A stretch of DNA of 56,852 nucleotides from Verrucomicrobiota bacterium (GTDB lineage: Bacteria > Verrucomicrobiota > Verrucomicrobiia > Limisphaerales > SIBE01). The stretch is taken from positions 1-56,852 of the forward strand of contig JAQBVM010000002.1 in the NCBI GenBank assembly GCA_027623095.1, in the 5' to 3' direction. The position numbers were made by a program, and so were the translations under genes. Below the pieces are notes generated by a model. It worked only from the letters and a program-made list of their open reading frames with translations. It ran no database searches and was not told the origin of the DNA. This document shows positions 3,680 to 53,577 of this stretch, piece by piece. The stretch's first letter is position 1. Each line of letters begins with the position of its first letter.

Positions 3680-4249
3680 ATGAGAATTAGAAGATTCATC
3701 CCGCTCGCTCTATCTGTGGCAGGACTGCTGGTGTTTTCGAACAGCGTTCAAGCGCAAGATTCAAAATTGGCCGGTCTAGCCGTTGGCACAAAGGCTCCGG
3801 ACTTCACATTGAAAGACCAAGCCGGCAAAGAGCACACGCTCAGCTCCCTCCTTAACCGGGGGAAGGTCGCATTGGTGTTTTATCGATCCGCGGATTGGTG
3901 ACCATTCTGCCGAACGCAGTTAGTTGAACTGCAATCAAATTTGAAAGGGATTGAGGCGGATGGGACTACTTTGGTCGGGATTAGCTATGACTCCACTGAA
4001 ACCCTCAAACGCGCCGCAGCAAAGCATCAAATCACCTACCCTCTCCTTTCCGATACCGGGAGCAAGACAATCGACGGCTACGGAATTCGGAACAAAGAAG
4101 CCGCCGGAGGCCGCATCGACGGTGTACCCTATCCGATGACCTTCGTGCTTGATCAAAAGGGAATGATCCGAGCCAAACTCGGGCATGATGGTTACCGGGA
4201 GAGGCACCCAAGCGCAGAACTGATCAAGGCTCTCAAAGAGATTCATTAA
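3680..4249 (+). CDS. Exported AhpC/TSA-redoxin family thiol peroxidase/oxidoreductase with in-frame TGA (3899-3901) read as selenocysteine (U-P-F-C active site)
   Basis: ORFs 3680-3901 and 3941-4249 are in the same frame, and 3902-4249 is open. Read-through gives KVALVFYRSADW-[TGA]-PFCRTQLVELQSNLKGIEADGTTLVGISYDS, which is the FYR..W-C-P-x-C redoxin motif with TGA at the first Cys. Signal peptide MRIRRFIPLALSVAGLLVFSNSVQA. SECIS-like hairpin downstream. Confidence 0.7.
3916..3932 (+). promoter_or_regulatory. SECIS-like stem-loop downstream of the in-frame TGA
   Basis: GCAGTT-AGTTG-AACTGC is a perfect 6-bp stem starting 14 nt after the TGA. The apical loop contains GU and lies 20-24 nt after the TGA, within the spacing known for bacterial SECIS elements. 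Confidence 0.5.
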
Positions 4250-4255
4250 TTCCAT

Positions 4256-5020
4256 ATGCGATTGCCGCGACCCGGTGAACCTCGCCGGCAGTTCGTAAAG
4301 CGATTCTTGCTGCTGGCAGCCTACTCAAGGGTGTTGACAGCCGATTGGAACGGGACGCTTCTTGCTGAAATTAAACCGCCCAAACGCCCGACATTCGGGA
4401 TGATGCGTCTGCGGCTAAGTGATTTCCCTGCGCTGCAAAATGATTTTGGCTCAGTTCGAATCGGCACAAGCGCGCTGACCGCAAACAATCCGTTGGGCCT
4501 TCTGTATCCGATTCTGATCAACCGCGCGACCCAAGGCCAATTCTACGCGCTCCTTTCAGAGTGCACGCACGCGGGCTGTGCTGTCCGGCCTTATAGCAAA
4601 GAATCCGGCGCCTGCGTCTGCCCGTGTCACGGGTCCAGATACGCGATCGACGGACGCAGAACCGCGGGACCGGCTTTCTTTCCGCTTCTCCAGTATCCGA
4701 TCCAATTCGACGGTATCAACACTCTGTCCATCGAACTGCCCGATCTGCCTCATGAAATTGAAGGATCCTTGGTGAGAACCCTCCCCGGCGCGGAGTTCAG
4801 ACTCCAACTAAGATTTCTGGCGTTTGCCCATCTCGAATATGAAGTCGTGTTCAGAGCGTCGAAGACCGATGATTGGCGGAACGTTCAATTCTCTTTGACC
4901 CCGGAAGCGCCGCTGAATCGCTCCTTTGTCAGCGGCGCTGACGATTATCTCAACCTCTACGTCGAACCGGCGGCGGGGCTTGGATTCTTCGCCGTCACGA
5001 TCCGCATCCTTCCGGTGTGA
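4256..5020 (+). CDS. Tat-exported Rieske [2Fe-2S] domain protein with a roughly 100-aa C-terminal extension
   Basis: Twin-arginine-like N-terminus PRRQFVKRFLLLAA. Rieske ligand motifs CTHAGC and CPCHGS. Starts 6 nt after the redoxin stop. Confidence 0.85.
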   Translation: MRLPRPGEPRRQFVKRFLLLAAYSRVLTADWNGTLLAEIKPPKRPTFGMMRLRLSDFPALQNDFGSVRIGTSALTANNPLGLLYPILINRATQGQFYALLSECTHAGCAVRPYSKESGACVCPCHGSRYAIDGRRTAGPAFFPLLQYPIQFDGINTLSIELPDLPHEIEGSLVRTLPGAEFRLQLRFLAFAHLEYEVVFRASKTDDWRNVQFSLTPEAPLNRSFVSGADDYLNLYVEPAAGLGFFAVTIRILPV

Positions 5021-5439
5021 TGCGACAATCTCTACACGACTTAAAGGTAAACACGCGCGGACGCGGATTTTACGAATTGACCGGCGAAATCCAGTCGCTT
5101 GTTTCCGAATCGGGAATCCAATCGGGTCTCGCCACCGTCCATGTCCTTCACACATCCGCATCCTTGCTGATTCAAGAGAACGCGGATCCGGAGGTTCGGC
5201 GCGACTTGGAGCGCTTCTTTTCACGGCTGGTTCCAGACGGAGACAGATTATTTCGCCATACAGCGGAGGGCGAAGATGATATGCCCGCCCATGTCCGGAC
5301 CGCTTTGACAACCGTCAACTTGAGCATTCCGATCGCCGCTGACCGGCTGGTCTTGGGAACGTGGCAGGGGATTTTCCTCTGGGAGCACCGAACGCATCCG
5401 CACACACGCCGAGTCGCTATCCATCTGCTGGGCGAATAA
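5020..5439 (+). CDS. yjbQ: YjbQ/UPF0047 family protein (secondary thiamine-phosphate synthase-like)
   Basis: Family-typical sequence (LKVNTRGRGFYELTGEI, HTSASLLIQENADP, DDMPAHVRTAL, GTWQGIFLWEHR). The ATG at 5020 overlaps the Rieske TGA as TGATG. Confidence 0.8.
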   Translation: MRQSLHDLKVNTRGRGFYELTGEIQSLVSESGIQSGLATVHVLHTSASLLIQENADPEVRRDLERFFSRLVPDGDRLFRHTAEGEDDMPAHVRTALTTVNLSIPIAADRLVLGTWQGIFLWEHRTHPHTRRVAIHLLGE

Positions 5440-20543: not shown

Positions 20544-22403
20544 TCATTTCAGCACCTGCTCCAGCTTCTTTACTAATGAAATGCATTGCCCGGCTACAGC
20601 GCCGGGATCCCCCCCCGCATTGCCGCCGGCAAACCGATTCGCTTCACACATCTTCATCAATTCCTTCAATTCCTCCAAATCGGACGGATCCACCCCTTTT
20701 TTAATCATCAATTGATCCACGTCCTTGTAGGTCAGCGCACCATGACTCATCCGCAGCTTTCCACCCAGGTACCGTCGAAGGCAATCCAAGACGGCATCTG
20801 AAGAAGATTCCAATCCAATTCGCTGAATCGCGGCCAGTTCGCGGCTAACCTCCGTGAAGACCAGCCGCGATCGAAGCGCCAGAGGATCCGAATTGCGCCT
20901 CCGAACGAAAACGACACCGGCCAAGAGAATCGCGTAAACCAGCGGCGGCCCGCCAATCACAGAAACCCATGCCGGTGACCGCAGCCAATTCTCCGGCCCG
21001 AACTCTTGATTCACGATCGCATCCAAATCTTCGTAGTTATGTGCGATGCCTCGAGTCCACGCCTCGACCGCGCTGGCAGCGGGATTTGAGGCGCTCAAAC
21101 CTTCGGCGTCGCTCGCCGTCACGACCTTGGTCTCCCGAACGGAAATGGAAATCGGCTCGCTTCGCGCCACCTTATAGGTCGCGCTGTCCGTGTCGAAATA
21201 GGGCAGTTCAATTGAGGGAATCGCCTGAATATCGCTTCGCCGCGCCCGAACGGTCTGTGTGAATACTTTCCTCACGCCATCAAACTTGCCAGCTTCCATC
21301 TCGGCGGGAATCTTGAAATCACGCGCGAGGCTGAGTTGTTCTTGCAGCGGAGGAAGACTGATATGATCCAAATACTCAGGGCCGCTGAGCGCGATAGTGA
21401 GAGTAATAGGGTCTCCGACGTTCACATCCGTGGGAACCGCCGTTGTTTCCACACGGTAATTACCTACGTACCCGGAAAAATTGGCAGGACGCCCTTCATT
21501 GGGAAGATCCGCCACCTCTAATGCAAGCGCATTGGAAGGTATCACTTGCTTCCTGTAAACCTCCTGATTTCGAGACCCAAAAACATCCGAGAAAAAACCA
21601 GGCGAACGGTTCTGCCGAACACCTGCCAAAACTTCAAACGCAACCGTGGCCGGATCAAGGGGTATGACGCCAGTTTTGTTCGGAATGAGAATCTTCTCGA
21701 AACCAACTGTCGTGTAGTCTTTGCCATCCAAACGGCCCTGACTCTTCACCGCGATTACTTCCTCAGTTCCCAAGCCAATTCGAACATATTCAATACCCGG
21801 ATTCTGGATGAATCTGGGACTGGCGGATGACACAGAATTGTTGTTTAACACCGGGAGGTTGAATCGAGCATTCCGCACATTCTGACCGACATACCAAACC
21901 ATTCTGAGCTGAACGGGCTCACCGACAAAAACCTTTCGTTTCGACAATTCGAGAACAAGCTTGAAGTTCTCAATATCCATCGGCTTCTGGACGTTAATGG
22001 CAACCGGATTCGTGCGGACGGTTTCCCCTTCAACCGTCAGCGAAATTGACGGGATAACTAGGCGGCCAATTCGCTTCGGAGTGAGTTGGAAATCCATTAA
22101 ATAGGACTTCTGGATATCCTGGGTCATTCGTCCGTTGATAATCGTCACCGAACTGCTGTTGTTTTGACGGCCTCCGGCTGGCTGCACCGTGAAATCGGTC
22201 AAACCGGAAAGATCCGCCTGACCCGGTTGATCGGAACCGGAGATCTGAATCTGCATTTGAAAAGTCTCCCCCAGAAAAACATCTGTGGCACCCACGGCAG
22301 TTTGCGCCACAATGGCGGCCGCCGTTCCCGGAAAAACAAAGTGAATCCCGACAATTATCATTAATGCCGGCCACACTATGATTTTTGGAGCGATGAATCT
22401 CAT
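20544..22403 (-). CDS. batD: BatD-like oxygen-tolerance protein
   Basis: About 620 aa with an N-terminal signal/TM and a C-terminal TM (VIGGPPLVYAILLAGVVFV). Position after batC. The ATG at 22403 lies 1 nt after the batC TGA. Confidence 0.75.
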   Translation of the reverse strand: MRFIAPKIIVWPALMIIVGIHFVFPGTAAAIVAQTAVGATDVFLGETFQMQIQISGSDQPGQADLSGLTDFTVQPAGGRQNNSSSVTIINGRMTQDIQKSYLMDFQLTPKRIGRLVIPSISLTVEGETVRTNPVAINVQKPMDIENFKLVLELSKRKVFVGEPVQLRMVWYVGQNVRNARFNLPVLNNNSVSSASPRFIQNPGIEYVRIGLGTEEVIAVKSQGRLDGKDYTTVGFEKILIPNKTGVIPLDPATVAFEVLAGVRQNRSPGFFSDVFGSRNQEVYRKQVIPSNALALEVADLPNEGRPANFSGYVGNYRVETTAVPTDVNVGDPITLTIALSGPEYLDHISLPPLQEQLSLARDFKIPAEMEAGKFDGVRKVFTQTVRARRSDIQAIPSIELPYFDTDSATYKVARSEPISISVRETKVVTASDAEGLSASNPAASAVEAWTRGIAHNYEDLDAIVNQEFGPENWLRSPAWVSVIGGPPLVYAILLAGVVFVRRRNSDPLALRSRLVFTEVSRELAAIQRIGLESSSDAVLDCLRRYLGGKLRMSHGALTYKDVDQLMIKKGVDPSDLEELKELMKMCEANRFAGGNAGGDPGAVAGQCISLVKKLEQVLK

Positions 22404-22404
22404 C

Positions 22405-23682
22405 TCACCAATCCTTATCCACCGCCCGATAACCAACCGGCTGCCTAGGCTGCCGCCGTTCCCGGTTTTCCTTTTCCTCGTCGAGAATGCTGCGCGCTTC
22501 TTCCCTGGCTTGCGCCTGCTGGTGATCCTTTTCCTTCGCTTTTGATTGATCCTCCTGCGGCTGCTGCTGTTGTTGTTGCTGCTGTTGTTCCTTCGGTTGG
22601 TTCTCCTTCGATTCCTCTTGCTGACTGTTCTCTTGCGATTGCTGCTCCTGCTGACTTTGTTCGTGTTGGTTCTCGCTCAGCTTCGCCAACGCTTCTTTCA
22701 GCTCTTCTGCCGCTTTTTCCTGGTATGGTTTGGCCGAAATAACGTTGTTTTCGTTCAGTTTCCCCAGGGAAGACACCTGGTCGGACACAGCGGTATCGAC
22801 GTGTTTTCGGGCTTCCGAAATGGGAGAACTAGGACCGGGTTGCGGAACCGGCATCGGCGGCTGCTGCGGCGCCCCCCCTTGGTTTTGCTGCTGCATCTGC
22901 TGGCGCATTTGCTCTTCGATCTTTCCCATTTCCCCCGAGAGTTCGGAAGTCTCATTTCTCACCGATTCCTGGCTGGTCGCAAGTTCGCCTGTTTGATCCC
23001 GGACAGCTTGGCTGTCGCCTTGTTGTTTCCGCGCGTCCTGAAGCTGCTGGTTTTGTTCGACGGCTTGTTCTTGTTTCGCGATGAGCTCTCGCAGCTTTTT
23101 CGCTATATCATCCATCGCGTTCTGTTGGTTCTGTTGCTCCTCCTTCTTCTTCTTCTGCTCATCGAGAATCGATTTCATAACGAGGCGCACGACTTCGATA
23201 TTCTCCGCTGCTTCTTTGAATTTAGGATCCAGTTGCAACGCTTCCTGATAGTGCCGAATGCTCTTTTCGCAAGCCTCCAGCGACTTTTTCAAATCGTTGT
23301 CTCTCTGCCGCTCCGCCTCGCGGAACGAGCAATTTCCGAGGTTAAACTTGCTCAGGGATCCCAAACGCGATTTTTTGCTTTTCAACGCGGCCTTCTCGAA
23401 AGCATCCGAAGCGGCGGCGAAATCGCCTTTTTGATACAAAGCACCGCCCCTGTTGAAGTAAATCGTGGCCGATTCGGGAGCTTCAACCGACGCTTCCTCA
23501 TACCGGGTTAACGCCTCATCAAACGAACCAGCCCTGTACGCCGCGTTGCCCCGCTCCACGAGCGAGCGCGTGGATTCCCCGATCACCGAAAACGGCAAGA
23601 ACAACGAGCCGACAAGGGATATCGCATGCCAAATTCGGAACATCACCGAACTCGTGCTTGATATTTTGAAAATCGACAACAT
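22405..23682 (-). CDS. batC: BatC-like TPR protein with a long Q/E/K-rich low-complexity C-terminal half
   Basis: TPR region (GNAAYRAGSFDEALTRYEEA, FNRGGALYQKGDFAAASDAFEKA) followed by a charged coiled-coil-like tail including a Q9 run. Confidence 0.75.
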   Translation of the reverse strand: MLSIFKISSTSSVMFRIWHAISLVGSLFLPFSVIGESTRSLVERGNAAYRAGSFDEALTRYEEASVEAPESATIYFNRGGALYQKGDFAAASDAFEKAALKSKKSRLGSLSKFNLGNCSFREAERQRDNDLKKSLEACEKSIRHYQEALQLDPKFKEAAENIEVVRLVMKSILDEQKKKKEEQQNQQNAMDDIAKKLRELIAKQEQAVEQNQQLQDARKQQGDSQAVRDQTGELATSQESVRNETSELSGEMGKIEEQMRQQMQQQNQGGAPQQPPMPVPQPGPSSPISEARKHVDTAVSDQVSSLGKLNENNVISAKPYQEKAAEELKEALAKLSENQHEQSQQEQQSQENSQQEESKENQPKEQQQQQQQQQPQEDQSKAKEKDHQQAQAREEARSILDEEKENRERRQPRQPVGYRAVDKDW

Positions 23683-23695
23683 TTCAAACTAGATT

Positions 23696-24715
23696 TCAGA
23701 CTCCGCGTTTTCTCTCTGGAATAACCATCTCGAGGCAGAGCAGACCGAAGGCCAGCGCAAGAAAGATCTGAAACTTTTCCTCGTACCGCTTGATGGTCTT
23801 CGACTCCAATTCCCGTTTTTCGGCGGAAGCGATGAACTGTTGATACACGTCCCCGAGGTCGATCGTTCCGGTCGCCACATTTAAGTATTTGCCGCCGGGC
23901 GTGGCATTCACCATCTTTCGCAGCGTGTCCGCGTCAAGCTTCGTCCAGATTTCCTGCCCGTTGTACTTCATGAACGTGGGCTGTCCGTTCTCGCCTGTAA
24001 TCGGAATTCGTTTTCCTTCATTTTCATCTCCCAGACCAAGAGCGATGATACGAATTCCCCGCTCTCCGGCCTGCTTGGCCGCCTCCAGCGGAAAACTATC
24101 GTGATCCTCTCCATCCGTGATCAAAATGACGTCTTTAAACTCTTTCTCCTGGTCATCGAACACCTCGTTCATGGTCTTTCGCAACGCATCGCCAATCATT
24201 GTTCCACCGCGGGCAATGCTGTCGATTGAGATTCCGTCCAGCATCATTCGAAAGAAACCGTAATCAAGTGTAAGCGGACATTTCACGGCAGATGTGCCTG
24301 CGAATGCCACCAAGGCCACGCGATCTCCCTCCAACCGCTCAATACAATCCTTGATGGCGAGTTTTGCGCGATCCAATCGATTCGGAGCCAGATCCTCGGC
24401 AAGCATGCTTTTCGAGACATCCAAAACAAATACCACATCCCGGCCTTGCCGTTGAATCGTTTTCGGCTTCGGATTCCACGCCGGCCTTGCCAACCCAATA
24501 ATCACAAACACAGCCGCAAGAATGATGAGCGCCGCCTTCCAGGCACGCTTGGTCGAACTCACCGAAACAGCAATCTTACTGAGCAACCCCGCTTCAACGA
24601 ACTGTTCCAAAGCCTTTTTCCGCTTCCAAGCGCCGTAATAAAATAGCGCCGCAAGCAACGGGGCAACCCACAAGAGCAACAGCATCTCGATACTATGCAA
24701 ACGAACGCCACTCAT
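23696..24715 (-). CDS. batB: BatB-like VWA domain membrane protein
   Basis: N-terminal TMs, a VWA MIDAS context (DVVFVLDVSKSM) and a C-terminal TM. The ATGA overlap with batA is at 24712-24715. Confidence 0.85.
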   Translation of the reverse strand: MSGVRLHSIEMLLLLWVAPLLAALFYYGAWKRKKALEQFVEAGLLSKIAVSVSSTKRAWKAALIILAAVFVIIGLARPAWNPKPKTIQRQGRDVVFVLDVSKSMLAEDLAPNRLDRAKLAIKDCIERLEGDRVALVAFAGTSAVKCPLTLDYGFFRMMLDGISIDSIARGGTMIGDALRKTMNEVFDDQEKEFKDVILITDGEDHDSFPLEAAKQAGERGIRIIALGLGDENEGKRIPITGENGQPTFMKYNGQEIWTKLDADTLRKMVNATPGGKYLNVATGTIDLGDVYQQFIASAEKRELESKTIKRYEEKFQIFLALAFGLLCLEMVIPERKRGV

Positions 24716-25779
24716 GGAATTTTGCGAAAAAATGTACTTCCGAGCAAAGTCTCCAAACCGATCAATAGTAGCGCAACCGCAGCCAGAATGAAAAACCGCT
24801 CCTCGTAATCCATATACCGAACCGATTCGATCTCGCTACGTTCCAGTTCGTCAATCTCCCGGTAAATTGCCTCCAACGATTCGGCGTCCGTGGCAAGACG
24901 GTACAATCCTCCTGTCGCCTGCGCCACGGCTTTTAACGTCGCTTCATCCACACTGTTTCCCATTCCGAACTTGAACGTTCCGAACACCCCGCCTTGGGAG
25001 GTAATCGCCTCATCCCCGCCCACGCCAATCGTATAGATCTTGATTCCCCATTCGGATGCCAGCTTGGCCGCCTCAAGCGGCGCCCGCTTTCCCCCATTGT
25101 TGGCGCCATCCGTCAGCACAATCATCACCTTGCTCTTGATTTCGTAATCGTCATTCTCGCCCCCCAATTGGCTCGCCAGGACTTCCTCCGCAGTCTTCAA
25201 ACGGGCGGCGGCAAGCGCGATCGCGTCTCCGATTGCAGTACCGTCTTCGCTGCGCTCGTCCTGCTGCACCAGCCGCACGGTTTCCAAAAAGCGCGGCAGA
25301 GCGCCATGCGCCAATGTCAGCGGAGCCACAGTGTCCGGATACCGCGCGAAGGTGATCATTCCGATCAGGTCATTTGGACGCCCCTTGAGCGTCTTGCCGT
25401 TCCCGAGCACAAACTGAGAAAATGCGCGCTTCACCACTTCCAGCCGGTTGAGAGTATCTCCCTCATACTTCATTTCGGCAGCCATGCTGCCCGACCGGTC
25501 CACCACCATTTCAATAGCGATCCCTTTGTTGAGATCGTGGACTTGTTGAAGTCCCTTCTGCGGGCGGGCGATCGCAACCGCCAAGAGCGTCAGGGTTAGC
25601 AATCGAATGCCCAGAGGAACAGCTCCGAGCCGCTGCCGCACTGACATCCCGGCCTTGGCGGCATTGCTCGTGGACGAGAACCGAATGGAGGCCGCGCGGG
25701 AAATCCGGCGTGCGCGCCACAACAAGATCACTGGAAGAGCCAGTAAGATCAGCAGTGCCCAGGGCGATTCAAGAATCAT
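24712..25779 (-). CDS. batA: BatA-like VWA domain membrane protein
   Basis: The ATG at 25779 gives MILESPWALLILLALPVILLW. VWA MIDAS (IEMVVDRSGSM) and a C-terminal TM. Confidence 0.85.
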   Translation of the reverse strand: MILESPWALLILLALPVILLWRARRISRAASIRFSSTSNAAKAGMSVRQRLGAVPLGIRLLTLTLLAVAIARPQKGLQQVHDLNKGIAIEMVVDRSGSMAAEMKYEGDTLNRLEVVKRAFSQFVLGNGKTLKGRPNDLIGMITFARYPDTVAPLTLAHGALPRFLETVRLVQQDERSEDGTAIGDAIALAAARLKTAEEVLASQLGGENDDYEIKSKVMIVLTDGANNGGKRAPLEAAKLASEWGIKIYTIGVGGDEAITSQGGVFGTFKFGMGNSVDEATLKAVAQATGGLYRLATDAESLEAIYREIDELERSEIESVRYMDYEERFFILAAVALLLIGLETLLGSTFFRKIP

Positions 25780-25786
25780 GATCAAC

Positions 25787-26932
25787 TTAAGCGGCCGCCG
25801 CTTGTTCTGGGTTCTTGGGCTGCGCACCGGTGCCATTCAATGCGGTTTCTTCGCCACCCGAAAGATCCCGGGTTTCAAGTATGAAATTCTTGCAACTGTC
25901 GAACGTCTTTTGGATATCGTCGTTTTCCGGGCGGTGCTCGGCGAACTTAACCAAATCACAATGCCGGAGAAACTCTTTTAAAAGCTCCTTTTGTGGCGGA
26001 GTAAGCAAGCGCGTCACCGCCAATGTGCCGAGAAACTCCTCCGTCGTCTGTTCCGGGGCTTGAAGTCCGAAACGGTTTTCGACATAACGCCGGAGGATAT
26101 CCGAGATTCTACGGTAAAACTCTTTGATCTCGCCCTTCTCGGGCAGATTCTCCGCCACCAAAGCCTCAATTTGGCCAAACGCCAAATCATGAGCCGGAAT
26201 GGACGACTCGATAGATTCCTCCAATTTCTTCCTCCGGACCCAGAAAACAGTCCCAGCCGCAAACAGAATCAGAACCACTCCAACGAGAGCCAGCCATGCG
26301 CGAGAAACCGGTTCGCGAGGCAACTCCTCGGGAGAGGCGATCTCGTGAATCTTAATCTCGGCTGCCGCTTCCGGAAGCAATGATTTCACATGCAACGTGA
26401 TAACCTCCGTTTCCAGCTCGTGCTCCTTCTCCTCCGCTTCTCCTCTCTTCGAAAAAAGAAACTTCATGACCGGAATCGTGTAATCTCCGGAAAGGAACGG
26501 TTCCAACACGTAGGATCGTGTCTGGCGCGTTCGCCCGCCTTCGATTAATTCCGGCTGGGTCGTGTCGTAGTCCACGATTCCGAATTGTTCCAGTTTTTCA
26601 CCAAACCGAGGCATTCGCACGTCATAGTCTTCGTCCGCTGTTACCTCCATTCGCAATCGAATCCGATCCGCAATGGTTGGCTCTTTCTTATCCACGGTGA
26701 GAATCACCTGAACGGGTCCACGCTCGAACTTCCGTTCAATGCCTGGCTGCGTCTCAACCGCCGCTCCAGATTCCTTCGATCCGCATCCAGCCCCAATCAT
26801 AATGGTAGCGATGCAGATGCCAATCATCGCCAAAACCTCAGCGCTTCCACACATCGATGGAACAGAAGCCAAATTCCCGCGAATCCGGCGCCCTGACGAC
26901 AGCGCTGCTAGTGTTAAGAACTCGCGCGTCAT
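25787..26932 (-). CDS. Membrane protein with a BatD-like N-terminal beta-rich domain, a TM and a DUF4381-like C-terminal domain
   Basis: Lipobox-like IGAGC, TM WLALVGVVLILFAAGTVFWV, then PAHDLAFGQIEAL...FYRRISDILRRYVENRF, as in DUF4381 proteins found in MoxR/Bat operons (from memory). Confidence 0.55.
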   Translation of the reverse strand: MTREFLTLAALSSGRRIRGNLASVPSMCGSAEVLAMIGICIATIMIGAGCGSKESGAAVETQPGIERKFERGPVQVILTVDKKEPTIADRIRLRMEVTADEDYDVRMPRFGEKLEQFGIVDYDTTQPELIEGGRTRQTRSYVLEPFLSGDYTIPVMKFLFSKRGEAEEKEHELETEVITLHVKSLLPEAAAEIKIHEIASPEELPREPVSRAWLALVGVVLILFAAGTVFWVRRKKLEESIESSIPAHDLAFGQIEALVAENLPEKGEIKEFYRRISDILRRYVENRFGLQAPEQTTEEFLGTLAVTRLLTPPQKELLKEFLRHCDLVKFAEHRPENDDIQKTFDSCKNFILETRDLSGGEETALNGTGAQPKNPEQAAAA

Positions 26933-26935
26933 TCT

Positions 26936-28318
26936 CTACTCGGTTTGGCTCTCCCTTTTTTCCTGAGCGAAAGCGCTCTGATGAATCACGACCCGATATT
27001 GGTCCTTGAGGTCGGACAGGAGCTTCTGCTGGATCTCCCGTTCCTTTCGCGACCTCAAGGCGCTATATACTTCGTTGCGTACCTCTTCAAAAGGCCGCGC
27101 GTGTTCGGCTTCTTTCTCCCGCACTAGAATCAAATGTAAACCTTGATCGGAGGAAATAGGGGTCGCGGCAACTTTTCCTGCCTCCGTTTCAAACACCGCC
27201 TTTTGCGCATCTCCAGAATTTCCGATTCCCGGGACGGCGGCCCCCTTGTTAACCCAACCTTCGATCTTCCCTTGATTCTTTGCGGTGCCCGCGTCCATAG
27301 AAATCTCCACCGCCAGCTCACCAAAATCTTTTCCATTCTTCAGATTCTCCAAAGCTTCCTTTGCCATCTCTTCGTCTTTCAACAGGATGTGACTGATCTG
27401 AGCTCTTTCCGGTTGAACAAAACTTTCTTTGTTCGCCTCATAGTAGGTTGTTAGATCGCCAGATGTTATCTTGATCGAGTCCGCCAACTCGTTCGCAAGA
27501 ACGCGCTGAGCGAGCAGGCTTCGCTCGGTGTCCAGAAGCAGTTGACGCGTTCCCGGATCTTCCGCCAGTTTGGACTCCCGCGCTTTCCTGTATAGAATCT
27601 CCTCCATCACGTATTGGTTGAGGAACTGCATGCGCTGGGTCGAGGATGACAACTGACTCAAGAGAGTCTCTTTCTGTTTCTTGCGCTCCTCGTCTGGCAG
27701 ATACGCCGCGTATTGACTGAGCTGCTGTTCGATGGCCGCCTCAATTCGACGATCAAGCTCGGCTTTGCTGATTTTCTGCGCCCCAATTTCGGCAACAATT
27801 TCTTCACCCGTGGCCGAAGCCGATAGATTCAGCCCGACACGATCGGAGAGCTCGTATCGCAGGGCCGCGAATTTCCCCATCGCTTCAAGGCACTCTTGTG
27901 TCCGCCTTCCAATCTCAGGCTCCAACTCTTTATCGCGATAGAAACTCTCGGACCGATAGAAACTATTCAAGGCTTGAGCATAATCTCTTGCCTCCTGATG
28001 GAGCTTGCCGATCCGATAATAGACCTTGGCAGTCTCCGCGTCATCCGGAGCGGCCAGTCTAAGATACTCTCTCCATGCGTCCGCTGCTGTAGTCTGCAAA
28101 TTCTGCTTCTCCAACTTCAAGGCCAACTGTTTTTGCGCCTCCGAGGAAAGCGATCCAGGCGTCTTGGCCTGTTCCGGTGAAGTCCGGTTTTTGACCGCAA
28201 AAAACATATTTCCGAGAACCGCCGCCAAGATGCAGATTAATAGGAACCGATTCGTTCCAGACGTTTTGACTGGAGCGGGCTTGCGCTCCGGCAGCGAAAA
28301 ATCAAGTTTGTCACTCAT
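26936..28318 (-). CDS. Membrane-anchored parvulin-type peptidyl-prolyl isomerase (PpiD/SurA-like) with an N-terminal TPR-like region
   Basis: TM FLLICILAAVLGNMFFAV. PpiC/rotamase signature ISHILLKDEEMAKEALENLKNGKDFGELAVEISMD...GKIEGWV...GLHLILV. Confidence 0.8.
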   Translation of the reverse strand: MSDKLDFSLPERKPAPVKTSGTNRFLLICILAAVLGNMFFAVKNRTSPEQAKTPGSLSSEAQKQLALKLEKQNLQTTAADAWREYLRLAAPDDAETAKVYYRIGKLHQEARDYAQALNSFYRSESFYRDKELEPEIGRRTQECLEAMGKFAALRYELSDRVGLNLSASATGEEIVAEIGAQKISKAELDRRIEAAIEQQLSQYAAYLPDEERKKQKETLLSQLSSSTQRMQFLNQYVMEEILYRKARESKLAEDPGTRQLLLDTERSLLAQRVLANELADSIKITSGDLTTYYEANKESFVQPERAQISHILLKDEEMAKEALENLKNGKDFGELAVEISMDAGTAKNQGKIEGWVNKGAAVPGIGNSGDAQKAVFETEAGKVAATPISSDQGLHLILVREKEAEHARPFEEVRNEVYSALRSRKEREIQQKLLSDLKDQYRVVIHQSAFAQEKRESQTE

Positions 28319-28356
28319 TTCATTTCCTTAACCGAAAAGGTGTTCTTTTTTTTATC

Positions 28357-29238
28357 TCACTTCTGAGCCCGCCGTTCCCGCGTGCGAAAGAATTTCACAA
28401 GATCGCGGACATAGTCCCGACCCGTGAAAACTTCGATCTGATCCACGTCCATTGATCGAAAGAGCTCCTTAAGCCGCCCTTGTTGACCCGCACCCAGCTT
28501 CTCGTACTGTTTCCGAACCGCGGCGCTGCCAGTATCGATCACAATGAGTTCCCCGGTTTCCGCGTCCTCCAGTTCCACGAGACCAACGTTTGGAAGTTTC
28601 ACTTCCCGAGGGTCCGTGATCGAGACAGCGATAAGATCGTGACGCCGGCTCAAAACGCGCAGTTGCTTATCGAAATCCGTGCCCTGAAAGTCCGAGACCA
28701 GGAAGACGACGCAACGCTTTGTTGTGACATGTCCAAGGTAATCAATAGCGTCGCTGATGTTTGTCTTGGCCTGGCGCGGCTTAAAATTCAGAAGTTCCTC
28801 GATCAAACGCAAAACGTGTGACGTTCCTTTGGCCGGAGGCACAAACATCTCGATACAGTCGGTGAATACTAGCAACCCGACCTTGTCGTTGTTCTTAATC
28901 GCGGAGAAAGCAAGCAGCGCGCACAGTTCCGCCGCGACTTCGTTTTTCATTTGGTGGGTGCTCCCAAAAGCTCCGGAAGCGGAAAGATCCACAAGAAAGA
29001 TCACCGACAGCTCGCGTTCCTCGACAAAACGCTTTACAAATGGATGCCCCATCCGGGCCGTCACATTCCAATCGATCGTCCGCACCTCATCGCCGGGCTG
29101 GTATTCCCGAACCTCCTGAAACTCCATGCCCTGCCCCTTGAAAACACTCTGATATTCACCCGCCAAGACATCGTTCACCGCCTTGCTAGTGTAAATCTGC
29201 AGGTATCGAATTTTCTTAGCAAGGTCCCGAGGAATCAT
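28357..29238 (-). CDS. DUF58 domain protein (MoxR partner)
   Basis: GQGMEFQEVREYQPGDEVRTIDWNVTAR is the DUF58 signature. The ATGA overlap with moxR is at 29235-29238. Confidence 0.9.
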   Translation of the reverse strand: MIPRDLAKKIRYLQIYTSKAVNDVLAGEYQSVFKGQGMEFQEVREYQPGDEVRTIDWNVTARMGHPFVKRFVEERELSVIFLVDLSASGAFGSTHQMKNEVAAELCALLAFSAIKNNDKVGLLVFTDCIEMFVPPAKGTSHVLRLIEELLNFKPRQAKTNISDAIDYLGHVTTKRCVVFLVSDFQGTDFDKQLRVLSRRHDLIAVSITDPREVKLPNVGLVELEDAETGELIVIDTGSAAVRKQYEKLGAGQQGRLKELFRSMDVDQIEVFTGRDYVRDLVKFFRTRERRAQK

Positions 29239-30224
29239 GGCACATCGACTGTTTTGAGAATCTGTTCGATCAGATCCTCCGATGTCTTCTCCTCCGCCTC
29301 GGCTTCATACGTCGGGATCACACGGTGCCGCATCACATCCATGGCAACCGATTTGACATCTTGAGGCGTCACATACCCACGGCCTTCGATCAAGGCATTC
29401 GCCTTCGACGCCATCGCCAAGAAAATCGTCGCCCGCGGCGATGCGCCATAACGAATCAGCGGCCCGATATCCAGTTTGTAATCCGCGGGATTCCGCGTTG
29501 CTTCGACAAGATCAACAATGTAGAGCTCGATCTTCTCATCCATGAAAATCTCATCCGCCAACTGGCGCATTCGAACAATGTCCTTGGGCGTGATTACAGG
29601 TTCGACCTCTTTGGACGGGTTGGATCGGGCCATCCGTTTCAGGATTTGATGTTCCTCAGCCTTGTTCGGATAAGTCACCTTTAGTTTCAACATGAACCGA
29701 TCAACTTGCGCTTCCGGCAGCGGGTACGTTCCCTCCTGTTCAACGGGATTCTGGGTCGCCAGTACGAGAAATGGGTCGTCTAAACGAAAACTCTCATCTC
29801 CGATGGTAACCTGGCGTTCCTGCATCGCTTCCAGCAAGGCGCTCTGAACTTTCGCTGGCGCACGATTTATTTCATCCGCGAGAACGACATGCGCAAACAC
29901 AGGTCCTTTCCTGATGCTGAAATCGCCTGATTTGGGATTATAGATCAGTGTTCCTACGACATCGGCCGGTAACAGGTCGGGAGTAAACTGAATACGTTTG
30001 AATGTCGCTTGAATCATCCGGGCAAGCGTGGTCACCGAGAGGGTCTTGGCCAATCCTGGAACCCCTTCAATCAAAACATGATTATTGCAGAGCAACGCCA
30101 TCAGAAGCCGGTCGATAAGCGCGTCCTGCCCCACTATCACTTTGTGCGCCTCAGTTCGTATCCGGTTGATTAAGACGCTCTCTTTTTCAACCCTATCCCC
30201 AATCTGTTTTACATCCACTGCCAT
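29235..30224 (-). CDS. moxR: MoxR-family AAA+ ATPase
   Basis: Walker A GVPGLAKT, Walker B VLADEINRA, and MoxR-typical length and C-terminus. Confidence 0.92.
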   Translation of the reverse strand: MAVDVKQIGDRVEKESVLINRIRTEAHKVIVGQDALIDRLLMALLCNNHVLIEGVPGLAKTLSVTTLARMIQATFKRIQFTPDLLPADVVGTLIYNPKSGDFSIRKGPVFAHVVLADEINRAPAKVQSALLEAMQERQVTIGDESFRLDDPFLVLATQNPVEQEGTYPLPEAQVDRFMLKLKVTYPNKAEEHQILKRMARSNPSKEVEPVITPKDIVRMRQLADEIFMDEKIELYIVDLVEATRNPADYKLDIGPLIRYGASPRATIFLAMASKANALIEGRGYVTPQDVKSVAMDVMRHRVIPTYEAEAEEKTSEDLIEQILKTVDVP

Positions 30225-30670: not shown

Positions 30671-31501
30671 CTACTTGTTGAGCAACTTGGCGACCTCAGC
30701 TCTCAAAGCGGGACCTCTCAAATCCTTGGCGACAATCTTTCCTTCGCCATCCAAAAGAAAAGTCGCCGGAATGGATCGAATCCCATACCGTTCAGCCAGC
30801 ATATTCTGCCAGCCTTTTCCATCGTAGAATTGCCTCCAAGTTACCTTGCGCCGCTCCATAAACGTTTTGAGGGCCTGTTCGTCGCTGTCGAGACTTATTC
30901 CTAAGATTTCAAAACCTTTCGGATGAAACTCTTCGTAGGTCGCCAGCACAATGGGCAATTCGGAGACGCACGGCCCGCACCAAGTCGCCCAGAAATCCAC
31001 TAATACAACTTTCCCCTTGTAATCGGCCACCGAAAGCGACGCTCCATCCAATCCGATCTCTTTGAAATCGGGAAATTTCGCTCCCACAACCATGCTTTGT
31101 TGAATTTTCTTGGCGGCTTCCTCCTTTTCAATTCCGGCGATCATTTGATCAACACTCTTCGCCTGCGTCGTATCTGGAAAATCTGTTTTCAACTGCTTAA
31201 TCATGGCCAGCCCGGCTTTGGTATCATTGAACACTTGGAGATATAGAGAAGCCTTCGCCAAGAGGATCTGGGCGACCTCGTCCGTCTTCTTTCCTTTGTG
31301 CTCCTCCAGCAACAGATCAAATTCCTTAATCTGTTCTGCCAACGCCTCTTCAGACGTTTTTCCCTGCTGCAAGCTCTCCCTGATCTTAGTGATTAGCTCT
31401 TGAAGTTGCGTCTCAGGATTGCCCTTCTCCGCGGCGGTAACAAATCCACAAGAAAGAAGAACTGAAAGCACCGCAGAAAAGATGAATGATTTTGTTCTCA
31501 T
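30671..31501 (-). CDS. Secreted TlpA/ResA-like thioredoxin-fold thiol:disulfide oxidoreductase
   Basis: The ATG at 31501 gives signal MRTKSFIFSAVLSVLLSCGFVTA. Active site VLVDFWATWCGPC. Confidence 0.85.
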   Translation of the reverse strand: MRTKSFIFSAVLSVLLSCGFVTAAEKGNPETQLQELITKIRESLQQGKTSEEALAEQIKEFDLLLEEHKGKKTDEVAQILLAKASLYLQVFNDTKAGLAMIKQLKTDFPDTTQAKSVDQMIAGIEKEEAAKKIQQSMVVGAKFPDFKEIGLDGASLSVADYKGKVVLVDFWATWCGPCVSELPIVLATYEEFHPKGFEILGISLDSDEQALKTFMERRKVTWRQFYDGKGWQNMLAERYGIRSIPATFLLDGEGKIVAKDLRGPALRAEVAKLLNK

Positions 31502-31758
31502 CAGATAATTAGGAGGCCATCGTTCGATTCCAAACGCAAGGATATTCGGCACCCGACTAAACCCAGACAACGAATGAATGCCCAATGCCAACAAAAGGAG
31601 AGCAAAGTGTTCCAAAGGACGGAATCTAATCGAGCGTACCAATCGTGGCGGCTACCAATCGCGTGAACGACCCCGAATCGATTCGTTCTCGAATGCAAAC
31701 CAGAAAAAGCCATATGATTCCGACTTCGTCCGCCATTCCTGGCGGTGGATCTTGTTCA

Positions 31759-33045
31759 ATGGAAGCGATTCTAGGAGAGTATTTTATACCCGCTTACCCC
31801 CCCTTCTCAGCTTGGTCACAAGGTCAAATCGCGGATCTCGAGAACTCACTCGATCAGAAATCGTCCGAAGATCCACTTGCCATCTATGTGCATGTCCCGT
31901 TCTGTGTAAGCAAATGCGATTTCTGCAATAACCTCTCTTATGTAGGAGCCCGAGAAAACGTCATGCACAGCTACGTGGACGCAGTCGAAAAGGAAGCCGC
32001 GTTGTATGGGAGACGGCGCGCGATTCGGGACCGGACGATTTCAAGTGTTTATTTTGGCGGAGGCACTCCAACAGCCCTTTCCGTTGATCAAGCCGATCGG
32101 TTAATACGGGGGATCCAATTCTGGATTCCATCGAGAAACGTCAGAGAGGTCACCTTCGAATGCGCACCCCGATCGGTACGGGCGCATTTTCTGGAATCGC
32201 TCCGTAAGAATGGCGTGACGCGCATGAGCATGGGAGTGCAAAGCTTCAACAACATTCTACTCAAACTCAACGGTCGAATTCATTACGCCGACGACATTCT
32301 GAGAGCTTTTCGAACAATCCGAGATATCGGCTTTGATTCCGTCAATTTGGATCTCATGGCTGGCTTGCTGGGTGAAACGGAAGCGGACTGGCAGGATACG
32401 GTTCGACGGACAATCGAAATCGCACCGGACAGCGTAACCATTTATCAGATGGAAATTCCGCGGAACACACAGTTGTATCGGGACTACGCCGAAGACCGGC
32501 TTCCAACGGAATTGGTTTCATGGGATGTCAAACACGCCCGGGTTGAATACGCGTTCTCCGAATTCGAGAAATCTGGGTACACCATCACAAGCGCTTACAC
32601 GGTGGTGAAAGATTCGAGATTACACCGATCCATTTACGAAGATCATGTCTGGAGCGGACGCGACCTGCTCGGATTGGGTGTCTCGTCTTTTAGCTATCTG
32701 GGAGGAGTTCATTCGCAAAATGATGTTACGCTGGAATCGTATGAGTCGGAACTGCAGCAAGAGAAACTTCCTTTGAAACGCGCCTACAAACTGAATCAGA
32801 TCGATCAGTTCGTCAGGGAATTCGTTCTGCGTTTAAAATCTGGCCGCATTTTGTTTGAAAGTATTCGGAAAACTCACATGGATCCTCTGGATCATTTCGC
32901 GGAGCCGCTCAGAGCCCTAGAGAACGAAGGTTTTCTGAAAATCTCAGATTCCAATGTTTCTCTAACTCGGGAAGGTCTGGTTCGAATCGACCGTTTGCTT
33001 CCGCGGTTCTTCGCACCCGAATTTCGAAGCCTCTGGAATAGTTGA
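31759..33045 (+). CDS. Radical SAM HemN/HemW-family protein (oxygen-independent coproporphyrinogen-III oxidase-like)
   Basis: YVHVPFCVSKCDFCN matches the CxxxCxxC radical-SAM cluster, followed by GGGTP. The start is uncertain (31645, 31714 or 31759). Confidence 0.8.
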   Translation: MEAILGEYFIPAYPPFSAWSQGQIADLENSLDQKSSEDPLAIYVHVPFCVSKCDFCNNLSYVGARENVMHSYVDAVEKEAALYGRRRAIRDRTISSVYFGGGTPTALSVDQADRLIRGIQFWIPSRNVREVTFECAPRSVRAHFLESLRKNGVTRMSMGVQSFNNILLKLNGRIHYADDILRAFRTIRDIGFDSVNLDLMAGLLGETEADWQDTVRRTIEIAPDSVTIYQMEIPRNTQLYRDYAEDRLPTELVSWDVKHARVEYAFSEFEKSGYTITSAYTVVKDSRLHRSIYEDHVWSGRDLLGLGVSSFSYLGGVHSQNDVTLESYESELQQEKLPLKRAYKLNQIDQFVREFVLRLKSGRILFESIRKTHMDPLDHFAEPLRALENEGFLKISDSNVSLTREGLVRIDRLLPRFFAPEFRSLWNS

Positions 33046-53412: not shown

Positions 53413-53483
53413 TTTCGATCTTGATTTGATGGTTTTCGACGCTCGATCGACCTGGGATGCGGCACAGAATCGAAAAAAGAAAA

Positions 53484-53577
53484 TGCCAGGGTGACCACGG
53501 CGGATGAGGAGCAAACTACCGTTGCTGCATTCCTGCCCTGGCGGGGTTCGAAAGTCCCCATTCCATGGGCCCTGGCA
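53484..53577 (-). ncRNA. ffs: Signal recognition particle RNA (4.5S-type, about 94 nt)
   Basis: The minus strand folds as one long hairpin: UGCCAGGG/CCCUGGCA, CCAUGG/CCGUGG, AUGGGGA/UCCUCAU, CGAAC/GUUUG. Its apex is the domain IV signature CCAGG-GCA-GGAA-UGC-AGCAACGG (compare E. coli CAGG-UCC-GGAA-GGA-AGCAGCC). It is followed by UUUUCUUUUUU and sits just upstream of dnaX, a common position. Confidence 0.85.

Follow-up and report, generated by a model that had tools for sequence, protein, structure and literature searches.

A reading frame at positions 3680-4249 (+) of a 56,852-nt stretch of DNA from a Verrucomicrobiota bacterium (assembly GCA_027623095.1, contig JAQBVM010000002.1, positions 1 to 56,852 of the forward strand; the whole of this stretch is referred to here as the window) very probably encodes an exported thioredoxin-fold redox enzyme of ~18 kDa, in which selenocysteine (Sec) is predicted to be the active-site nucleophile. 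The frame is broken by one internal TGA, and comparison with relatives indicates that this codon almost certainly encodes Sec. The original prediction for the locus, made from the letters of the window and a list of its open reading frames (ORFs), had proposed an exported Sec-containing redoxin with a hairpin resembling a bacterial Sec insertion sequence (SECIS), and this interpretation is supported by the analyses described here.

An in-frame TGA within a single redoxin gene

The frame comprises 189 sense codons, inclusive of Sec74, and is terminated by TAA at 4247-4249. Its sole internal stop, the TGA at 3899-3901, is flanked by GKVALVFYRSADW upstream and PFCRTQLVELQSNL downstream, the residues immediately around the codon being VALVFYRSADW before it and PFCRTQLVELQ after it (motif FYRSADW-U-PFC). 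The ORF listing yields two pieces in the same frame (3680-3901 and 3941-4249), and translation together with this listing confirmed the earlier statement that the TGA is the only break between them. With Cys in place of the stop, the product matches the Pfam AhpC-TSA family (PF00578) over residues 35-165 with E=9.4e-35 (119.7 bits; cut-off 26), and since the match covers these residues of the read-through product, a single domain bridges the TGA. Elsewhere in the window TGA behaves as an ordinary stop, as had been claimed in arguing against a reassigned code; it is the commonest terminator, ending 19 of the 40 genes, and is internal to the redoxin gene only.

Conservation of the TGA codon among relatives

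A protein search returned more than 1,200 homologues, mostly annotated as 'peroxiredoxin family protein' of Opitutaceae and other Verrucomicrobiota, in which W-C-P-[FY]-C is invariant. Family alignments show W73, P75 and C77 to be invariant, with Cys at position 74 in every Cys homologue. Metagenome contigs were scanned for the DNA pattern encoding [FY]RSADW-TGA-P[FY]C, which is estimated to carry ~45 bits, with chance matches expected at far below one, and the pattern was found in at least 120 contigs. In a profile scan of genomes, with one genome per species, 77 of the best 80 loci have the motif, the codon being TGA in 57 and TGC or TGT in 20, which agrees with the earlier expectation that close orthologues should carry either Cys or TGA at this position. 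The 57 TGA loci are distributed among Verrucomicrobiota (including Chthoniobacterales and Candidatus Udaeobacter), Planctomycetota (Isosphaeraceae and Gemmataceae), Acidobacteriota and Sumerlaeota. The closest match to the window protein in the genome-collection scan is 60-61% identical, and tblastn alignments in relatives pass through the TGA as one segment.

The closest relatives, loci L123, L124 and L002, have TGA in all three cases. L123 is located in JAIPJX01, and a further TGA form, L125, in the complete Verrucomicrobiota genome CP170459.1. Locus L002 (protein P0002), which is among the two nearest matches of the protein search, carries a hairpin downstream of the codon, GCAGCT-AGTTG-AGCTGC, that represents a double compensatory change relative to the window. 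In six comparisons, in which dS is saturated, the ratio of nonsynonymous to synonymous substitution (dN/dS) does not exceed 0.12-0.18, whether before the TGA or after it, the low values downstream indicating that the portion past the TGA is translated. These values, at or below 0.18 on either side, reveal no sign in the window copy of the gene decay that the original prediction had named as speaking against it. Abnormally short frames past the Sec codon were observed in a number of other TGA-form contigs (L059, L101, L087, L107 and L038), that of L059 stopping after 32 codons with an apparent deletion; contigs of this kind may be decayed copies or assembly errors.

A covarying hairpin downstream of the TGA

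The perfect 6-bp hairpin described in the original prediction was confirmed from the sequence. It reads GCAGTT-AGTTG-AACTGC, begins 14 nt past the TGA within the codons for Q-L-V-E-L-Q, and is composed of a 5' arm (GCAGUU, 3916-3921), a loop (AGUUG, 3922-3926, containing G3923 and U3924) and a 3' arm (AACUGC, 3927-3932), with 20 nt separating the UGA from the apical loop. In the 42-nt segment 3899-3940 the hairpin is both the minimum free energy (MFE) and the centroid structure (-7.0 kcal/mol, z=-0.9). The model for bacterial SECIS elements (bSECIS), as given in PMC13188914, has an apical loop of 3-9 nt, an upper stem of 4-16 bp, a UGA-loop spacing of 16-37 nt, a G within the first two loop positions that is usually followed by G or U, and an MFE of <= -7.5 kcal/mol. 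The geometry of this model is satisfied by the window hairpin, with its 5-nt loop, G at loop position 2 and U at position 3, 6-bp stem and 20-nt spacing, such that the earlier description of a GU-containing loop about 20 nt downstream also stands. The strict family pattern is matched by a single TGA triplet in the window, that at 3899. An Rfam scan of the window returned no SECIS-type family, the sole match being a signal recognition particle (SRP) RNA. A second, upstream hairpin enclosing the UGA (GCGGA...UCUGC) was considered and dropped, the third-position base varying freely in relatives without compensation.

The hairpin was compared between 178 TGA forms (the window, metagenome contigs and genome loci) and 20 Cys forms. 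It is present at the same offset in every TGA form, including each metagenome contig with sufficient sequence; across the TGA forms all six stem pairs are formed in 168 cases and five in the other 10, while GU occupies loop positions 2-3 in 177 of the 178. Conversely, the Cys forms have between two and six stem pairs, loops such as GCAGG, CCAAG and GAAGG, and in no case a GU loop. The median hairpin energy is -8.8 kcal/mol in Sec forms versus -2.4 kcal/mol in Cys forms, and 98% of the 42-nt segments from TGA forms reach <= -7.5 kcal/mol. The encoded peptide differs likewise, the motif being followed in TGA forms by P[FY]C..QLV(E/Q)L(Q/E) and in Cys forms by QLQxLQ or QMKDLQ. The 20 Cys forms constitute one clade in a neighbour-joining tree and are nearly all from Opitutaceae/Opitutus or unnamed Verrucomicrobiota; one TGC locus, L191, is from a Verrucomicrobia groundwater metagenome-assembled genome (MAG). 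The expectation that the hairpin would be kept in TGA forms and not in Cys forms was therefore borne out, with intact stems and compensatory changes in the former, and degraded stems lacking the GU loop in the latter. A separate Cys variant, at L203:276-312 (TGC), is one of the long forms described in the next section and has 75% identity to a Sec form. It has retained the QLVELQ peptide, five of six pairs and a GT loop (CCAGCT-CGTAG-AGCTGC), as though Sec had recently given way to Cys and left a relic SECIS behind.

Covariation was assessed with 150 distinct 54-nt segments from TGA forms, using 500 shuffles and slid-partner controls. Paired cells amount to 99.1%, compared with a mean of 90.7% in the shuffles, none of the 500 attaining the observed value, and with 0.7-40% for slid partners; changes on both sides were counted in 80 cells, the shuffles giving 17.4. 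Covariation is seen in three of the six pairs (GC129/CG14, GC117/AU29 and CG113/UA36), and RNAalifold independently predicted the same helix from the 150 sequences. The covarying sites are synonymous, pairing the third position of Gln with the first of Leu, and the first of Leu with the third of Glu/Gln; one stem pair couples a synonymous site to a Gln/Glu replacement. Selection on the protein alone would not give rise to this pattern.

Fold, active site and export of the predicted protein

A sequence search of the PDB returned the AhpE and BCP peroxiredoxins first (E ~1e-11), followed by ResA-type oxidoreductases. An AlphaFold model was built of the Cys homologue P0004 (mean predicted local distance difference test score, pLDDT, 83.8; N-terminus of low confidence), for which Foldseek identified BCP/AhpE as the nearest PDB folds (target-normalised TM-score 0.84-0.87) and ResA as the next (~0.8). 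When aligned with AhpE/BCP, C77 falls on the peroxidatic Cys, Sec74 on the Thr/Ser of T-x-x-C and Arg69 on the Pro of P-x-x-x-T-x-x-C, and the catalytic Arg116 of AhpE has as its counterpart Pro152, a residue that does not vary across the aligned family; by this alignment the protein lacks the canonical peroxiredoxin combination of P-x-x-x-T/S-x-x-C with a catalytic Arg. Alignment by BLASTP with Bacillus subtilis ResA (24% identity; the comparison sequence is identical to PDB 1st9) places W-U-P-F-C on W-C74-E-P-C77, and P-Y-P152-M-T-F on the P-L-P-T-T-F cis-Pro loop. Judged from these alignments, Sec takes the place of the N-terminal, nucleophilic Cys in a CxxC redox centre carried on a peroxiredoxin (Prx)-shaped scaffold, and the predicted active site is of the ResA/TlpA type (U-x-x-C with cis-Pro) and not that of a peroxiredoxin. 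The earlier claim that the TGA lies at the catalytic Cys accordingly holds in the sense of a CxxC redoxin: the codon corresponds to the first Cys of W-C-x-x-C in the ResA alignment, but not to the peroxidatic Cys of peroxiredoxins, which is C77 in the alignment with AhpE/BCP.

The protein scored under the cut-off of each of the relevant NCBIfam models, whether for peroxidases (67.9 versus 140 and 46.8 versus 260), for ResA/DsbE/TlpA (49 versus 170, 28.8 versus 123 and 21 versus 230) or for selenoproteins (SelL-related, 40 versus 120; PrxU, 29.9 versus 270; WAxxUGC, 22.4 versus 300; TUGYCR, 15.9 versus 100), and the long form of the protein likewise remained under the NCBIfam cut-offs. The N-terminus, MRIRRF-IPLALSVAGLLVF-SNSVQA/QD, has a basic n-region, a hydrophobic core and an A-x-A-like site, and a similarly hydrophobic N-terminus is found in all homologues. 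A Sec-type signal peptide is predicted from these features, and the mature protein would be periplasmic or otherwise exported.

Two architectures are seen among the TGA forms. Short forms, to which the window gene belongs, have 110-129 residues past Sec (65 complete copies), and long forms have 260-299 (65 complete copies). The C-terminal addition of the long forms is a DsbD_N domain (PF11412, E=1e-7; residues ~217-327 of L004) with the motif Y-Q-A-C-D-x-x-C, and most of the TGA-form relatives in soil metagenomes (L003-L122, e.g. L004 and L035) are of this type. Some long forms, such as L035, carry in addition an extra N-terminal region with Cys residues. The DsbD_N fusion suggests that the redoxin may take part in a DsbD/CcdA-type periplasmic electron relay.

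A mechanism can be proposed on this basis, in which the UGA at 3899-3901 would not be read as a stop and the downstream hairpin would act as a bacterial SECIS, recruiting SelB-GTP-Sec-tRNA(Sec) to the ribosome for the insertion of Sec; this recoding step is proposed because the hairpin is conserved, covaries and matches the bSECIS model. The full-length redoxin would then be exported by means of its N-terminal signal peptide, and in the periplasm the U74-x-x-C77 centre, lying opposite cis-Pro152 according to the alignments, would cycle between selenol/thiol and selenenylsulfide states. The enzyme would presumably be a thiol:disulfide reductase resembling ResA/TlpA/CcmG in its action, and the selenolate would surpass a thiolate both as a nucleophile and as a leaving group; the fused relatives point to a DsbD/CcdA-type periplasmic electron relay as the likely redox partner. 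Direct reduction of peroxide by the selenol is also possible, but the catalytic Thr and Arg of peroxiredoxins are missing.

Sec machinery and alternative explanations

A number of observations weigh against the assignment of Sec. Searches of the 56.9-kb window and of 1.9 Mb of related loci yielded no selA, selB, selD or tRNA-Sec: Pfam scans of the 40 window genes gave no SelA, SelB or SelD, a tRNA search of the window found none, ARAGORN detected no tRNA-Sec in any of the 203 loci, and tblastn with Escherichia coli SelD and SelA queries gave no match in the 1.9 Mb of window and loci. The absence of selA and selD matches from the window and related loci indicates that the Sec genes are unlinked to the redoxin gene. 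The hairpin of the window is a weak, AU-rich variant, its -7.0 kcal/mol being just short of the bSECIS cut-off of -7.5 kcal/mol; its single-sequence folding z-scores (-0.5 and -0.9) are not significant and were not used as evidence, and in a longer sequence context the MFE fold takes other pairs. The loose bSECIS geometry is passed after 15.7% of the 1,846 TGA triplets in the window (both strands, any frame), and the hairpin criteria taken alone are very unspecific in this genome. Three of the 20 Cys forms attain all six stem pairs, and the codons for the peptide Q-L-x-E-L-Q are in part self-complementary, such that some pairing is expected without selection, a caveat that is addressed by the presence of covariation at synonymous sites. 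Finally, the near-identical relative L001 (P0001) has TTA (Leu) at the Sec codon with the same hairpin as the window. The codon at L001:1367-1369, from an ENA metagenome, corresponds to the TGA at L123:3687-3689, from an NCBI MAG, in contigs of the window's nearest relative that are 98.8% identical over 1.9 kb and share the same hairpin. The TTA is either a natural Sec-to-Leu variant, in which the enzyme would be inactive but translated in full, or an artefact of assembly or sequencing; it appears that loss of Sec occurs or is tolerated in certain reads or strains. By itself, then, the hairpin is weak evidence, and it is the comparative data that raise the finding far above chance.

Relatives of the gene are also associated with organisms that use Sec. 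The TGA form L129 belongs to Verrucomicrobia bacterium SCGC AAA164-E04, which the supplement to PMC5029168 counts among Sec users, with 4 selenoproteins. Full Sec-insertion gene sets are reported for Gemmata obscuriglobus and Isosphaera pallida (PMC4807772), and the families of both organisms include TGA forms.

Decoding of the UGA by other means, whether near-cognate read-through with Trp or Cys or a genome-wide reassignment of UGA as in some reduced Verrucomicrobiota, is considered very unlikely. Reassignment of UGA to Trp has a precedent in Verrucomicrobiota, as reported in PMC13462651, Sec machinery was not directly observed in the sequences surveyed, and the TGA of L002 is indeed rendered as Trp in the JGI gene call. 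However, that call (L002:818-1468) is halted neither by the Sec codon nor by the true TGA stop, overrunning the latter into a spurious 26-residue tail, and the use of TGA to end 19 of 40 window genes, together with its absence from the interior of any other, is at odds with a reassigned code. Moreover, the codon is exactly at the position of the redox-active Cys, and neither read-through nor reassignment would require a covarying hairpin with a SelB-type G-U loop at canonical spacing, quite apart from the documented use of Sec by a TGA-form relative.

Another explanation, that the gene is a pseudogene in which an ordinary Cys redoxin has suffered a TGC-to-TGA nonsense mutation and the hairpin arises incidentally from the QLVELQ codons, is exceedingly improbable. 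The same TGA recurs across four phyla, in no fewer than 177 other sequences that include all of the nearest relatives (L123, L124 and L002), and the 115 codons downstream are under purifying selection as strong as that on the upstream part. It is true that TGC is converted to TGA by a single-base change, that a few relatives such as L059 appear decayed, and that, considered as a single sequence, the hairpin is not significantly stable and has a counterpart after nearly a sixth of TGA triplets; compensatory stem changes in combination with the invariant GU loop were nevertheless observed only in TGA forms. Lastly, the notion of two small genes sharing a frame, namely one for a secreted peptide of 73 aa and one for a protein of 102 aa with its start at TTG 3941, can practically be dismissed. 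ORF callers do report two pieces, and C-terminal fragments of this kind abound in public databases; yet the junction is bridged by a single Pfam domain and a single predicted globular fold, the intervening 39 nt show coding conservation (P[FY]C..QLV(E/Q)L), and neither piece holds a complete thioredoxin fold or a CxxC motif.

Gene context and feature coordinates

Features assigned within the gene are collected in Table 1. A Rieske [2Fe-2S] domain protein gene (4256-5439, +) begins 7 nt past the redoxin stop, and its TGA stop is reported to overlap the GTG start of a UPF0047 (YjbQ-like) gene (GTGA, 5017-5020). The idea of a conserved operon was dropped, as the only shared neighbour is an upstream met-zincin gene, held in common with L123 (84% amino acid identity) and L001 (82%). 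The downstream Rieske, UPF0047 and FG-GAP genes adjoin none of the homologues found, the arrangement not being conserved, and the function of the redoxin was therefore not inferred from its gene context.

Table 1. Predicted features of the redoxin gene, with window coordinates and supporting evidence
Feature	Position	Strand	Evidence
Selenoprotein gene, Prx-like (AhpC/TSA fold) thiol:disulfide oxidoreductase (predicted)	3680..4249	+	Translation; Pfam; tblastn through TGA; dN/dS
Predicted Sec-type signal peptide MRIRRFIPLALSVAGLLVFSNSVQA, cleavage likely after VQA	3680..3754	+	Read from sequence
In-frame TGA, almost certainly selenocysteine U74	3899..3901	+	Aligned with invariant Cys of WCP[FY]C; TGA in relatives
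Predicted redox motif U74-P75-F76-C77 (UxxC)	3899..3910	+	Alignments to ResA, AhpE and BCP
Putative bacterial SECIS core hairpin	3916..3932	+	MFE/centroid fold, RNAalifold and covariation; absent or degraded in Cys forms
Codon of invariant Pro152 (G-V-P-Y-P-M-T-F), presumed cis-Pro facing UxxC	4133..4135	+	Family, ResA and AhpE alignments

Elsewhere in the window, a second exported thioredoxin-fold gene (30671-31642, -) is of the TlpA/ResA type and has an ordinary FWATWCGPC motif, in which the residue is Cys rather than Sec, together with a long helical region at the N-terminus. This gene is adjacent and divergent to a radical-SAM gene (31645-33045). A cluster at 20544-30224 (-), comprising a MoxR AAA ATPase, DUF58, a peptidyl-prolyl isomerase, BatA/BatB-like von Willebrand factor A, tetratricopeptide repeat and BatD genes, resembles an aerotolerance-type 'Bat' operon. 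The bacterial small SRP RNA (Rfam RF00169, 66.9 bits) is located at 53481-53577 (-), adjoining dnaX.

Annotation of the family and wider significance

Splitting of the gene by ORF callers had been foreseen, and is borne out both by the two pieces listed here and by the truncated fragments that represent its relatives in databases. A search of a public protein collection with a long form as query returned 2,779 matches, the top ones being overwhelmingly 275-residue fragments that begin MELQQ and are named 'hypothetical protein', 'peroxiredoxin' or 'AhpC/TSA family/DsbC'; one cluster of MELQQ fragments alone has 251 member sequences. In P0122, P0174 and ~100 other matches, gene callers have placed the start at a GTG (Val) codon in the SECIS apical loop. 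The redoxin gene and thousands of relatives are hence split or truncated in annotation, the usual product being a protein of 102 or 275 aa that starts from the SECIS or beyond, and corrected gene models would restore the active site.

If the assignment of Sec is correct, the Verrucomicrobiota source organism is a probable selenium user, and the set of envelope redox enzymes recognised in dominant soil phyla would be extended by a periplasmic selenoenzyme that probably draws on a DsbD-type relay. The family could also serve as a clean natural experiment on the requirements of a bacterial SECIS, providing 178 variants, three covarying pairs and the invariant GU, with Cys-form, Leu-form and relic-hairpin sequences as controls. 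Knowledge of how Sec is encoded is unchanged by these data, which would come as no surprise to a selenoprotein specialist.

No paper was found in the literature on the clade of the window gene in Verrucomicrobiota or soil bacteria. It can be proposed, as a tentative and somewhat doubtful idea, that the gene represents a distinct, uncatalogued clade of periplasmic selenoredoxins defined by SADW-U-P[FY]C, with one homologous SECIS across four phyla and, for the most part, DsbD-alpha-like fusions. Such a clade would perhaps rank among the most abundant selenoproteins of aerobic soils while being almost wholly overlooked in public annotation, and its SECIS would dictate the QLV(E/Q)L(Q/E) peptide; if true, protein sequence would here be constrained by an RNA signal across distances as great as those between phyla.

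Comparison with known systems

Prx-like selenoproteins with distant homology to Prx, and a thioredoxin-like UxxC in place of TxxU, have been known since 2004-2005 (PMC1088965). They appear as 'Prx-like 1, pfam00578, UxxC' in ocean metagenomes (PMC2398784) and as 'Prx-like thiol:disulfide oxidoreductase, PF00578' (PMC13188914, PMC1794560), and were first predicted in Geobacter and other Deltaproteobacteria (PMC13188914, PMC1794560, PMC1088965, PMC2398784). By its predicted features the window gene fits the description of this known kind, which shares with it membership of PF00578, a UxxC motif (true Sec-peroxiredoxins having TxxU), the existence of Cys homologues and a SECIS downstream of the UGA. 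The window branch differs, in a comparison with the Geobacter founders made by description only, in its signature of [FY]RSADW-U-P[FY]C followed by QLV(E/Q)L(Q/E), and also in its occurrence in Verrucomicrobiota, Planctomycetota, Acidobacteriota and Sumerlaeota, mostly from soil, its signal peptide, and the fusion of most members to DsbD_N.

With ResA/TlpA/CcmG (DsbE) the predicted protein has in common an exported thioredoxin fold, W-U-P-F-C as the equivalent of W-C-x-x-C, and Pro152 as the equivalent of the cis-Pro of P-x-T-F, whereas Sec replaces the nucleophilic Cys, identity is 24% and the overall fold is nearer to BCP/AhpE. Conversely, the BCP/PrxQ and AhpE peroxiredoxins provide the best PDB sequence and structure matches and belong to the same Pfam family, but their Pro, Thr and catalytic Arg are replaced by Arg69, Sec74 and Pro152, respectively. 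In PrxU (TxxU), Sec replaces the peroxidatic Cys, a position that is occupied in the redoxin described here by Cys77. As regards the RNA element, the window hairpin resembles the E. coli fdhF-type SECIS and the bSECISearch consensus in being an intra-ORF hairpin 3' of the UGA, with a small loop having G-U at positions 2-3 and with spacing and stem within range; it differs in being short and without an evident lower stem or bulged U, its role as a SECIS being predicted from the comparative evidence.

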